Source: Eledone cirrhosa (Eukaryota). From it: DNA of 64,000 nt. The stretch covers positions 61,690,001-61,754,000 of the forward strand of contig OZ024742.1 of assembly GCA_964016885.1 (NCBI GenBank). The letters are read 5' to 3'. The notes beneath the pieces were generated by a model. That model saw only the letters and a list, made by a program, of their open reading frames with translations. It made no database searches and was not told the DNA's origin. The translations under genes were made by a program, and so were the position numbers. Below are positions 15,792 to 54,976 of this stretch, in pieces (positions within the stretch are counted from its first letter, which is position 1; each line of letters begins with the position of its first letter).

Positions 15792-15954
15792 ATAGGAACG
15801 AGTAGGACCCCGGCGGCTAAGCTCAAGCCGTCGAAACGGCTTGAGCTTAGCCGTCGGGGTCCTACTCGTTCCTATTACCCACTCTACTACCCTAAGTATT
15901 GAGTACTTTGGTGCGTTATGGTCCACCTGGTTCCTTACCACATTTCCTTCGTTA
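15792..15954 (+). mobile_element. Palindromic PLE-terminus derivative in (TA)n
   Basis: Inverted repeat 15792-15875 centred on gccg-tcgaaa-cggc, followed by an 80-bp tail shared with 27808-27886 and 36843-36921. Confidence 0.85.
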
Positions 15955-16204
15955 TATATATATATATATATATATATACATATATATATATAGAAAATAC
16001 TGTGTGTTTCTCTATGATATATGGCTATATACATATATTATTTATTTGACTTATTGATGCTCTGGACAAATGCCCAATGAGCTATTCTGCTGCGAAAATT
16101 ATTCATCATACATATTGTATATGTTATGATACATTAAATTATTATCTATACAAATACGTCAACTACCATTATTTTATATATATATATCCATTAATATTAC
16201 AAGG

Positions 16205-16279
16205 GGTCTGACGAGTCGCGGATTATAGAGTCAGGTCAGATCGAACCTTGAGCTGATCAGTGGCGAAACGCGCGTCACC
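16205..16279 (+). ncRNA. Type I hammerhead ribozyme with palindromic stem III
   Basis: ggt-CTGACGA-gtcgc...gtggc-GAAACGCGCGTC-acc, within a solo terminus 15990-16335 between (TA)n tracts. Confidence 0.82.
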
Positions 16280-16734
16280 AAACAATAAACGTAATGTAGG
16301 AGTAACCAATCGTCCTTGTTATATTATTTCACTATATATATATATATATATATATATATATATATATATATATATATATATATATATATATATATATATA
16401 TATGGGATGGGCTCCAGCAGGTTTTAAATGCCCAAGAAATGTCGTACGAGTATGTCATTAGAGCGCCCCTATGACTACCTCACGAGTTACTGGACCACAC
16501 ACACACTATATATATATATATATATATATATATATATATATATATATATATATATATATATATATATATATATATGTATGTATGTATATATATAAACATA
16601 TATATATATATATATATACATATATAAACATATATATATATATACATATATATGTGTGTGTGTAAGTATATATATATATATATATATATACATACACACA
16701 CATATATACAATACATATACATGTATACATATGG

Positions 16735-16975
16735 GTTATATCGAACATTAATAATTATGTTCGATTCGTTTGAAGCTGTGCCGTACCGGTGACCGATTGT
16801 TACCTGTTTGTTCAACACTGGCTTTGAGGAACAATCAACATGTTTTGGGGTCATTACCCTCCATCAGGACTATATACCACTGCCAATCTGTTGAACGGTT
16901 GAAAATATATAGTATTTTATTAACTACACATCGGCTGAGTATCTTCATTTGTATACCGAGCCTACAAAACACAGC
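16735..16975 (-). mobile_element. PLE-type terminal repeat with degenerate HHR
   Basis: Homologous to the 33610 tandem unit; minus strand CTGATGG aggg..cccc AAAACATGTT is a damaged core. Confidence 0.5.
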
Positions 16976-16989
16976 TTTATCCAAATTTT

Positions 16990-50162: not shown

Positions 50163-50888
50163 GGGGGTTTACTACGATGTCTATATCATCAACGTAGGAG
50201 AGTACATTGTCAGGGTTAAGAGGTTGCTGTCTTCTAATTGTTCATTAAGTTTATTGTCCCACCATACCATGAATAGGTTAGCTATGTCACCTGCAATGCT
50301 GACACCAATGGCTGCTCCCTCCTCTTGGGCATATGTTTTTCCATTAAATTTGAACATATGTTCCTTAAGGGTTAGTTTTATACTGGCCCCCACCGCATGT
50401 GCAATCATTTTCTTTATTTCATCGTGGTTTTCGGGGGTCCTTATGGCTCTGGTCCACCCGTTCCAGCTTTCTGTGTGGGTTTTCTTGCCCATTGAGGTAA
50501 TGGTAGGTGGTCTGCCACTTGCTGGTCTTGTGGGGCAAAGGTTGCTAAGGTCATACGTATCTAGATAATCATTATTATAAGTAAGTTTAAGTAGGAGTCC
50601 CAGCTCACTGGTATCAATCCCACGGAATTCAACATTGCTCTCATTGATCATTTTTACGCATTTCTCCACAGCAAAATCCACGTCAATGGATGGATATAGG
50701 GACACAACATCCATACTACCTATTATACAGTCTGTTAAGTCCCTAGATCGGTTATTTTCGCTGATTCTGCTGAGGAGGTCCTCCGTGCTGTCACATATAT
50801 CCGAGAACATTTCAATGATGGGGCGTATGATCAGGGAGAGGAAGTAGGAAAGTCTGTTGTTACTAGTAATGTTAGCTCCACAGACTGT
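50163..50888 (-). mobile_element. PLE reverse transcriptase core fragment, same family as 47562-49172
   Basis: [41 protein letters not shown] in the adjacent frame at ~50180. Confidence 0.9.
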
Positions 50889-51108
50889 GGTTTGGTAATT
50901 TGTTGAAGAACTAACTCTCTCTCACTCTCTCTCTCTCTCTCTATATATATATATATATATATATATATATATATATATATATATATATATATATACAATC
51001 AATGGAAAAAGAGTTAGTTGATTTGTAATCAACTGACTTTTGTATGTAACAGATGCCAAGCACTCATCTGTATAGATTTGTCCGGAATATTTTTATTATA
51101 ATCTAAAC

Positions 51109-52918
51109 CAAAGGTTCTCAATGGGGGTGCATATGCACCCGGGGAGCGTTTCGGAGATACAGGAAGCAAGGGGGCGTTAGGGGGGGTAAAGCTTTGAGGG
51201 GCGCTGGAAGCCTCTTTAGTTTTTTAGTTTGGTAAGTTTTATAAGTCATATTTGTACGTCTCTTTGACAGCCAGTGTGAATGCATTTGAATGAAGAAAAC
51301 GAAGAAAATAAATAAAATAAGCTTGTCAACGAATTCCCTAGGGAGATAAAAAAAACAGAAAGAAATCAAAGAAAATGAACATAAGGATGTCAACTTTGAC
51401 AACAGTTACAAGAACAACTTCAACCGAAATGACAACAAAAAGAAGCAATGGTGATGAAAGGTGTGGGTGTATACATATACATACATACGAACATACACAC
51501 ATGCATACGTACATACATAATACACACACACACATATATATATATACACACACACAGGCCTGCGTTAGGGTTTGATGAGGTTGAGAACCTGGTCAGCTTT
51601 CAGCCAGAACTGTGGTATTTAATCTCCCTAGGTAATAAAATCTGGAGACAGAATTTCCTCTTACCAAAAGAAAACATAAAAATAAATGCATGTATATATA
51701 CAAATATATAAATGCATAGCTATATACATACGTAAATGTATGTATGTATATATGTATGTATGTATGTATTTATGTAGATATATATATATATATTTATATA
51801 TATGTGTGTACATCTACATATATATGTATAAATATACACACACACACACATATATATATATATATATATATATATATATATATATATATATATATATATA
51901 TAAATCTACATACATATATACATTTACGTATGTATATAGGTATGCATTTATACATTTGTATATATATATATATGCATTTATATTTAAGTGTGTAAGAATA
52001 TATATATATATATGTGTGTGTGTATAATATATATATATATATATATATATATATATATATATTATACACACAGATACATATATATATTTTGGTCTACCAT
52101 ATTTGAGGCCTTGTTAGAGATAGATAGATAGATAGATGTTTACCAACACACACATTTCTTACTCTTCCCCCCACCCTCTTTCTCTCTTCATTTATATATA
52201 TATATGGCGTTGTTATTTGGTGTTGTTGAAAAGAGCAGTGGCCTTTGACCTGGCAATAAAAACTGGAGACAAAATTCTTTCTGTACCAAAACCACGGCAC
52301 ACACACACAAGTTTGTGTGGGTGTATGTGTGTGTGTGTGTGTGTGTGTGTGTGTGTGTGTGTGTGTGTGTGTATCTATCTATGTATATATATAAGGGATA
52401 CAGATATTGCTTTCTCACTGTCACCAAGCTTCTCAAGTCATTCCTTGCTACGAAGTATTTTATTTTGCTACGAGGTATATTATTTTGCAAGGTACTATTT
52501 TCCCCCTGAGTTTGTGGTTTCAGAGAAAGGTAAGAAATTCTTCATATTTTGCATCTTTTGTATTTGACTTTACAGTTTCAATTGTAGAATTGTCCATCCA
52601 CTCAAAATATTACAACAGCTAACAGTGAAATATAGAATTTAAAAAAAAAAAAGCTTTTTCGACTGAGATCAAATCTTTTTTTTTATTTCAAAAATATATA
52701 ATTTTAAATAGCTTGCTTTTGTTTTGGACTGAAAATTTTTTGTATTTAATTCGTTCGAGTATTTTTTAAATATTCTAAGATAATTTGATTTGGCCCAGTA
52801 ATCTACTGGTATCAAAATCAGTAGTATATTGAAAAATGGAAAAATAGGGCAGGAGGGGGGGGTTCGTATTTCGACGGGCAAAAGGAGGCGTTTGGCCGAA
52901 ATGGGTTGAGAACCTTTG
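51109..52918. mobile_element. Non-autonomous hAT (Charlie/Buster-like) DNA element swollen by microsatellites
   Basis: TIRs caaaggttctcaa / ttgagaacctttg; 8-bp TSD atctaaac (51101-51108) / atttaaac (52919-52926). Confidence 0.78.
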
Positions 52919-54917
52919 ATTTAAACTATAATAAAGTAAGGAGTGCGGGACTGCGTCCAGAATATATTTTTTTATACCGTTTGTAAAATAAGTTGGATTA
53001 CTTTGAATAAATAATAAATGAATATTACATAATTTATCTACGAAATTTCGTTATTCTTGATTAAATATAAATAATTTTGTCACTTATTCTAAGATTCACT
53101 TCTTTAAAATGTTCAAATGTCAACACTTCCGGTTAGCGATCGCGTAAATAAAAATTCATATATTTCCATCACTAATTTTCTCCTAATGCAGTTTATATAT
53201 AATATCGTCTTTTTTAATGTATCATGGATTACGTTACTGATTACATAAGACAGTGTAACACAGTCTTCGTACAATTTCTGTGTATATTGTCAATTACGAT
53301 TTTATTTGATGTATCATATCTACATGCATATAATATCAATATGCACACTACACATGCTAGCAGAAAAGCCACCCTTCGGGTGGTTTTTCTGCTAGTTATA
53401 GTAATAAACGAAAGATATACAGTTTATATCATCTCTATTTATTTCATTATATATATTTCGAAGATGTAAGGTTTATGTACACCATAAAACGGAACATGTC
53501 CTCGTCAGACAAAATACATAGGAGATGTATGATTTTGTTTATGATATGCTGGTAGCGAACGAGCTGGACAGATCGGTGACCACCAACTATATGACTAGAA
53601 AAAAACTCAACACATAGGAGGTTACGTGAGTGGGAGGATAATTACAGTTGGTTTAAACGTTTTAGAAATTATTTAAAACTAGACCAATCGTGACCCGTTG
53701 GATCACGTTCACTTCAAAATATTTTTTTTAAATCATGTTCACTTAAAAATATTTTTAAATAATGAAAATATACAGAAACATGTGTATGTATATATATAAA
53801 AATGTGTGTATACATATATATATATGTATGTGTGTGTGTATATATATGTGGGTGTCTGTGATTTATATACACTGGTCATAGACACACACACACACACACA
53901 CACATATATATATATATATATATATATATATATATATATATATATATATATATATATATATATATATATATAATTATATATATATATATATACACAACAA
54001 AACCACCAGCTCTCTGTCTTCTCTCCTTCCCTATGTCTCTCTTTCAATCTACTCTCTCACAACCACTATCTCTTTTTTTCTATCTTTCTCTCTCTCTGTT
54101 TATGAAGGTACCCGGAAAAACCCCATAACTCGGGAACCTGTGCTCCGATTTCCGCGAAACTTCTTTTATTCCATTTGTATTTACATATCAGGGTCAACTT
54201 CCTTTCAAAGTATTTTCCCATTATGCGTCCTTTGGCTGTATTACATTACAGACAAGCAAGCATGCAATCACAGGGTTTTAGTATTATACAGATATGACGC
54301 AATTAGATTGGTCCAAAAAATAAAACAAAAATTGACCGTTATTCAGTTTCTATGTTGCTTATATTCAATTAAAGTAGGTATTAAACCAAAAATATATATT
54401 ATATCAGAGGAAAAAAAACCGCTGAGTGCTTCGCATCTGTTATACACAAAAGTCAGTTGATTACAAGTAAACTAACTCTTTTTTCATTGATTAATCTTGT
54501 GCTCCTTCATTTGTTGAGCGCTTTATTCTATAACAGATACAAATAAAGGATGGAATACTTCAATATCTCCTCACCACGTAAGGATCTGCCAATACATGGC
54601 AAAAGGGAGTATACTAAACAGTTAATTTATGTTTTTTTATCTTCCATTTTTTTTCACTTTTTCTCTTCTGTTTTTTTTTTCTTTCTCTTCTCTATTCTTC
54701 TCTTTTTTGTCTTTTCTTTCCCTAATAAGTTATTATCGCAGTGTCTTTAATGCGCCGAAACATCTGAGACACGCAGCAGACAACTGAGGAAGGGAACGTT
54801 CTATGTATATATTTGTGTTTCCTTTACTTTCTAAACACTCGTTATTAGTAACCACACAGCACCTAGTCCCTTTCAATTCATACATATATATATGTGTGTA
54901 TATATATATACACACAA

Positions 54918-54976
54918 TCCAGAAATAGCCGTCGAAACAGCTTGAGCTCTGCCGTCGGGGTCGTACTTTTTCCTAT
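54918..54976 (+). mobile_element. Half copy of the palindromic HHR-derived element
   Basis: ccagaaatagccgtcgaaacagcttgagctctgccgtcggggtcgtactttttcctat followed by (TA)n. Confidence 0.8.

Follow-up and report, generated by a model that had tools for sequence, protein, structure and literature searches.

The window analysed here is the whole stretch of 64,000 nucleotides from Eledone cirrhosa contig OZ024742.1 (assembly GCA_964016885.1, positions 61,690,001 to 61,754,000). It contains part of a Penelope-like element (PLE) with a hammerhead ribozyme motif in its pseudo-long terminal repeat (pLTR), together with four short inserts (Table 1). The initial annotation had described the inserts as three palindromes and a half copy carrying hammerhead pieces from a PLE. 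All four are present where claimed and bear the stem II 3' arm, GAAAC-GGC-loop-GCC-GTC and GGGG, and they are 3' ends of a Hydra-clade PLE that carry the 3' half of the hammerhead. Element coordinates count the A of the loop II sequence TTT-AGTCC as +1 (window 43814), which places G12 of GAAA at +19, the predicted cleavage after +41, the outer end of the short arm at +61 and that of the long arm at +141.

Table 1. Features of the window related to the PLE family (positions in the window; signed numbers are element coordinates)
Feature	Positions	Strand	Description
Two-armed PLE stub, subfamily C	15792..15955	+	Inverted short arm (from +61 to +22) meets long arm (from +12 to +141) at a natural AGCCG/CGGCT repeat, with its centre at 15826-15841; (TA)n on either flank
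Two-armed PLE stub, subfamily A	27691..27887	+	Inverted short arm to about +1, long arm +6 to +141; short arm is the deeper arm
Two-armed PLE stub, subfamily B	36842..37037	-	Long arm +1 to +141 on minus, short arm +7 to +61 on plus
Inverted upstream piece of the window PLE	42421..43108	-	RT YRDD to just past YIG; element -1858 to -1017, with internal deletion
5'-truncated PLE 3' part, subfamily A	43106..43874	+	GIY-YIG C-terminus, 3' untranslated region, hammerhead, +61 end into (TA)n
Type I hammerhead motif (predicted)	43763..43862	+	Stem I 5' strand 43765-43769; core UUGAAAA 43770-43776 (U3-A8); GAAA from 43832
Putative pLTR promoter	43784..43819	+	TATA-like TATTTAT at -30 (43784); initiator-like TTAGT with +1 at 43814
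Solo short arm, subfamily B	54918..54976	+	+3 to +61, between TA/CA repeats

The direct piece of the window PLE begins about 55 nt upstream of the -1017 end of the inverted piece, so that the two nearly abut, and the whole element (42421-43874) has the layout of an L1 twin-priming product and is probably an inversion of that type. Its hammerhead had been taken as the complete parent of all four inserts. The motif is there, with a predicted site after 43854; however, stem III and the cleavage triplet are decayed in this copy (GCCATT in place of GCCGTC), and only the insert at 27693 belongs to its subfamily. Across 13 parent copies the family core is UUGA(A/G/U)AA, a U3-A8 variant (11 of 13) with a variable position 7; G10.1-C11.1 is present in all 13, and 93.5% of cells in the three stems are paired. 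U3-A8 is a natural active covariant of the hammerhead (PMC3088659). The core at positions 3 to 9, GAAA, NUH and three stems together point to a type I hammerhead, for which self-cleavage is predicted. These close copies show no two-sided covariation, fold z-scores range from -0.5 to -2.5, and no hammerhead family appeared among the Rfam matches listed (150 of 223). Hammerheads in PLEs have been described (PMC4209133), as have retrozymes as PLE derivatives (10.64898/2026.07.22.740005).

The palindromes are a real and very abundant variant of a known PLE insertion type. An 18-mer from the element end has 58,858 exact matches in this 3.0-Gb genome compared to 0 for its reversed control, and the repeat is therefore not a product of chance. 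There are 10,513 palindromes centred in loop II with at most 14 nt between the stem II arms and 2,917 in which each arm extends to +1, counted for a single subtype; given that these sets do not overlap, the genome holds at least 13,430 palindromes. An additional 465 copies are centred on the AGCCG/CGGCT repeat, like the insert at 15792. For arm anatomy we used a young sample of 91 short ends of the youngest subfamily, taken from 90 of 4,818 places, of which 77 have an inverted long partner (the young copies), and an unselected sample of 116 arm records, which come from the window and from 70 loci among the first 88 of 100 listed places. For the hairpin-centred class, 30 loci were scored for loop side, five of them by eye. 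An exact-extension parse of the older subfamilies was noisy and was not used for results.

The source family is represented at locus L092 (611-6427) by a near-identical pLTR-ORF-pLTR copy with a 3118-bp unit, an intact open reading frame (ORF) of 719 aa and an inverted 5' copy. By motif, this single ORF carries a reverse transcriptase (RT; YRDD at 348) together with a C-terminal GIY-YIG endonuclease (EN; VIY..YIG at 591), with RWR at 37, DKT at 117, a CxCX5C linker (CNCPDRSIC, 572), CxxC (CNLC, 670) and CxH (CKH, 698). There is one Cys between VIY and YIG, with no CCHH and no GxKF/Y, and Pfam and PDB searches with the ORF gave no match. The element inserts into (TA)n: (AT)4 lies on both flanks in 69 of the 77 young copies, so that target site duplications cannot be read, and L092 shows a tandem plus inverted pLTR structure. 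Motifs, target and pLTR structure together indicate that the element belongs to the Hydra clade, the motif set being that of Craig et al. 2021 (PMC8557442). The element has been recently active. The short arm at L092 extends over more than a single 3118-bp unit, and its template must therefore have been circular, multimeric or jumped.

The two arms of a copy are strictly paired by their outer ends. In the unselected sample, all 44 long arms with a partner were paired with a short arm, and 47 of the 48 short arms with a partner were paired with a long arm, the remaining partner being a truncated long arm; there was no short-short pair at +61 and no long-long pair. Both +61 and +141 are normal PLE termini, and contigs of run X1, which may be the source of the genome itself, show loose (AT)n ends at both positions on L092. 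The initial annotation had read the CCTAT end of the short arm, running into (TA)n, as the last join to the target. That sequence is there, but copies with an ORF, among them the one in the window (43874), have this 3' end as well, and because +61 is a normal element terminus it is likely a priming end rather than the final join. A match of 3 to 4 nt (UAU) to the target at both +61 and +141 suggests that both outer ends could be priming ends, and a single RNA may serve the two. A second organism (run X5) also has this end, with (AT)n following +141, as seen in 11 contigs on L092 3150-3480; the depth there is low. In the predicted fold of the subfamily parents L092, L033 and L049, an extended stem I closes at UUCC just before +61, and a start site near +61 would hence lie at the ribozyme's base.

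Inside these fixed outer ends, the depth of one arm does not follow that of the other. In 36 of the 77 young copies the short arm includes bases that its long partner lacks (at least 3 nt in 25, at least 10 nt in 17), and the short arm exceeds the long one by at least 3 nt in 26 of 54 unselected palindromes. The short arm and the long arm are the deeper one about equally often (22:25 in the young sample, 20:15 in the unselected sample and 14:16 in the hairpin class). Among the young copies, the start of the long partner lies at +25..+57 in 8 of 77 and no earlier than +58 in 7 of 77; 7 of 77 have arms with almost no sequence in common. Short arms 0.4-1.2 kb deep occur with tail-only partners (L022, L023 and L126). 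Junctions of the young copies have microhomology of 0 nt in 21, 1 nt in 19 and 2 or more in 17, and 20 of the 77 carry insertions, several copied from nearby sequence. Short microhomology with locally copied insertions resembles polymerase-theta-type joining. At L152, L151, L154 and L181 the inserted sequence, of up to 48 nt, consists of the end of the arm itself copied repeatedly.

Most arms end in one sharp zone within loop II. Among young short arms, 70 of 91 end at -4..+8, 9 at +9..+22, none at -5..-80 and 12 beyond; for young long arms the count at -4..+8 is 51 of 77. Most arms pass the strong stems I and III and lower stem II before they reach this zone. The contig depth of run X1 on L092, which is not a copy number, rises about tenfold across 3246-3269 (+1 being 3249). 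The zone contains TTAGT or TCAGT, which we take to be initiator-like, and a motif that is presumably TATA-like lies at -30. The position of this putative promoter matches the zone where most arms end. The pLTRs of PLEs are known to hold a promoter (PMC2377424, PMC3846280). Since the arms pass strong stems, the motifs resemble a promoter and PLE pLTRs contain promoters, run-off at an RNA start inside loop II is favoured, and we consider it the likely source of these ends, with the start itself inferred. Two other explanations of the zone were rejected. A splice acceptor at TTTAG does not account for the many arms that retain +1, +2 and -1..-4, and ends at the cleavage site (+42) are few, given that only 6 of 77 long arms end at +35..+42, mostly upstream of the site.

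We consider twin priming at two PLE start sites, with run-off at the RNA start, to be the best-supported account of these insertions and, on balance, probably the correct one. Both ends of a cut (TA)n target would prime RT on the same RNA, one at +141 and the other at +61, and both complementary DNAs (cDNAs) would run off the RNA start, the putative transcription start, inside hammerhead loop II. Their 3' ends would then be joined head to head by microhomology-type end-joining. A +141 cDNA that reached the RNA start would give a palindrome, one that stopped early or at the +61 primer would give non-overlapping arms, that is, a classical twin-priming inversion, and read-through templates could give the long inverted-pLTR copies. 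The anatomy is consistent with this: the outer ends appear to be cDNA starts, the arms vary independently in depth and a non-overlapping class exists.

Several points weigh against this account. The cap-G test, which looked for an extra G before +1, was negative, with G:C before +1 next to ATATAT at 19:5 and before +2 at 9:3 compared to a background of 184:40; an apparent enrichment in the young sample (among arms at +1 that carry insertions, 6 of 9 short ones and 4 of 4 long ones) disappeared against controls. The end zone is also the 3' strand of a weak apical helix predicted in all subfamilies folded, and the arm ends have a second mode at +7. Equal-length arms are in excess (14 of 61 compared to 5.6 expected, p=0.0005); an RNA end common to both arms would account for this, but so would a zero-loop U-turn or a minority fold-back route. 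The starts of the PLE protein PAc lack homology to the target (PMC11167929), unlike the UAU match that we propose. Only one candidate chimera of two subfamilies was seen (L240). The sampled loci are the first listed places on contig C1, and all the evidence is drawn from genomic end products. Two other candidates for mixed templates were discarded: the reciprocal one-arm variant of L055 and L063 has only 22 genome matches and is likely a later point mutation, and a single CpG change explains the variant in L112.

The alternative that survives best retains twin priming but has the cDNAs halt at a structure, or at a bound protein, on the apical helix of stem II of a longer RNA. The negative cap-G test is in its favour, as is the position of the ends, given that -4..+5 forms the 3' strand of the predicted helix in every subfamily folded and the modes at +5 to +7 fall at its base. 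The helix is, however, short and AU-rich, whereas the stronger stems I, III and lower II are met earlier and passed. Most arms cross +41, although cleavage after that position would be open to an RNA that contains the complete ribozyme, and the presumed TATA-like and initiator-like motifs lie at -30 and +1. We regard this alternative as unlikely. Subfamily D, considered as a helix-free control, was set aside when the helix was found to form there as well.

The initial annotation proposed instead a snap-back, in which the cDNA from +141 stalls in the ribozyme hairpin, turns back with itself as template as far as +61 and is then joined to the target. This is self-priming of the Arkhipova type; a subsequent inversion or deletion at the centre could blur the polarity of the product. 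Shared source variants in the two arms, the 465 copies centred on the natural AGCCG/CGGCT hairpin and the excess of equal-length arms are all in keeping with it. Such snap-back of cDNA is documented for R2 protein insertions (PMC11371274), and self-priming was proposed for junction palindromes of PLEs in 2013 (PMC3846280), so that self-priming as the source of such palindromes had been published earlier. A cDNA begun at +61 cannot template the tail. Copy-back from the +141 cDNA would leave a short arm wholly contained in the long arm, which is not the case in the 36 of 77 young copies noted above, and the arms nearly lack overlap in 7 of 77; inversion at the centre could even out arm depth but could not yield non-overlapping arms. 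A loop of at least 3 nt is present in 11 of 77 young copies, and a loop with at least 2 nt of microhomology in only 4. Of the 30 hairpin-centred loci, 16 carry the loop on the long arm and 14 carry it on the short one, the latter also among copies whose arms are free of mutations. The short arms of kilobase scale with tail-only partners also speak against it. A rare variant was confined to one arm in 16 of 16 palindromes, and arm-to-arm exchange therefore looks rare. Snap-back is contradicted for about half of the copies, and as a general route we consider it quite improbable. The earlier proposal was right about the origin of the inserts but wrong, or at most partly right, about the mechanism.

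Other claims of the initial annotation were upheld by comparison of the arms. Fold-back centres do vary, the 77 young copies having 64 distinct junction types. Both arms of a copy do come from the same source, given that own-arm distance was 2.0 compared to 5.4 between copies in 32 unselected palindromes and that the arms agreed in subfamily in 30 of these 32 (0.22 expected). A tree of short and long arms, built on only 39 columns, did not cluster by side (21 label changes, shuffled mean 18.8). Two variants considered private to the insert at 15792 are not: 'actcgttcc' is a subfamily marker, and 'cttagccg' has 131 genome matches and lies on both arms of several unrelated palindromes with different centres. 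Of the loci inspected, L252, L265, L267 and the window carry it on both arms (as does L248 by eye), and 12 records on one arm only; it marks a minor source lineage. The remaining alternative, an ordinary miniature inverted-repeat transposable element (MITE) or self-amplifying palindromic non-autonomous element from one ancestor, could claim the terminal inverted repeats, TA flanks, high copy number and a few recurrent junction types, but it is refuted as a general origin by the junction variety, which leaves no fixed internal structure, and by the arm comparison, and with asymmetric termini identical to the PLE's own ends and palindromes in each PLE subfamily it is almost certainly wrong.

Twin priming might also have a wider role, although we offer this as a speculation more apt to be wrong than right. 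Two-ended priming would be the normal route of PLE integration, in which a protein dimer on one RNA gives the +141 and +61 starts to opposite ends of the target. The RNA would begin inside its own hammerhead, with the ribozyme split between the transcript ends, and the short run-off cDNA, like retroviral strong-stop DNA, would have to jump to the 3' repeat of the RNA for a long copy to form; failed jumps would leave the more than 13,000 palindromes. If true, this would also account for inverted pLTRs, for the tail being on one side only and for partial tandems.

The window contains further repeats. A near-perfect palindrome of about 210 bp at 17381-17590 (arms of about 95 bp, TATATA on both sides of a 21-bp centre) is unrelated to the PLE family. 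Arms of 186 bp, 100% complementary and 1561 bp apart, lie at 62068-62253 and 63815-64000, reaching the window edge, and a 243-bp repeat occurs on opposite strands at 23231-23473 and 56035-56277 (96% alike). Other CUGANGA...GAAA motifs, some hammerhead-like, belong to other repeat families (15392, 16208 and 24600 on the plus strand, 37195 and 47756 on the minus strand); the one at 37195 adjoins the TA tract of the 36843 insert.

The comparison with known systems indicates where this family differs. Like the Hydra-clade PLEs with a C-terminal EN, the Eledone element has a C-terminal GIY-YIG, RWR, DKT, a CxCX5C linker, CxxC and CxH flanking E/N but no CCHH, a length of about 3 kb, a (TA)n target and a pLTR hammerhead (PMC8557442); compared by motif description, it differs in its U3-A8 core and in that most copies are two-armed stubs of 140-200 bp. 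PLEs regularly show inverted copies that are truncated at the 5' end and have a tail on one side, and the formation of inverted pLTRs with such a tail is named as an open question (PMC8557442). Head-to-head inverted pLTRs, junction palindromes and a one-sided tail are shared with PLE insertions described previously (PMC8557442 Fig. 2; PMC3846280), where the tail is 30-40 nt rather than the 80 nt found here. Those sources suggest self-priming or EN resolution, which the Eledone arm-depth data do not favour. Our literature searches, with most subscription papers outside their scope, gave no account of two-ended priming or of mass palindromic stubs in PLEs. The family offers thousands of young, near-unmutated products in which arm geometry separates self-priming from two-ended priming, and it supplies an intact ORF and exact coordinates (+1, +61 and +141). 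The case further makes clear that MITE-looking hairpins, which annotation would misfile as DNA transposons, can be spread by a retroelement in more than 13,000 copies.

Among protein systems, a close parallel is PAc (Frangieh et al. 2024, PMC11167929), which in vitro begins RT at two internal sites on either side of the tail, elongates both strands, takes uncleaved RNA and an AT-rich target and is predicted to be dimeric. Its starts lack target homology, and the available text neither assigns one start to each target end nor discusses palindromes; the Eledone family would link these two start sites to two target ends. The R2 protein likewise leaves an antisense copy at the 5' junction by cDNA snap-back, also after full-length cDNA, but there the second arm is expected to be a subset of the first (PMC11371274), which fails in about half of the Eledone copies. 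In L1 twin priming, as described (10.1101/2024.12.14.628481), the second target end likewise primes internally on the same RNA and the two cDNAs are joined in inverted orientation. In L1, however, the event is occasional, the second site varies and the pieces do not overlap, whereas in Eledone the second site is fixed at +61 and the pieces usually overlap into a palindrome. The L1 process was reportedly set out by Ostertag and Kazazian in 2001.

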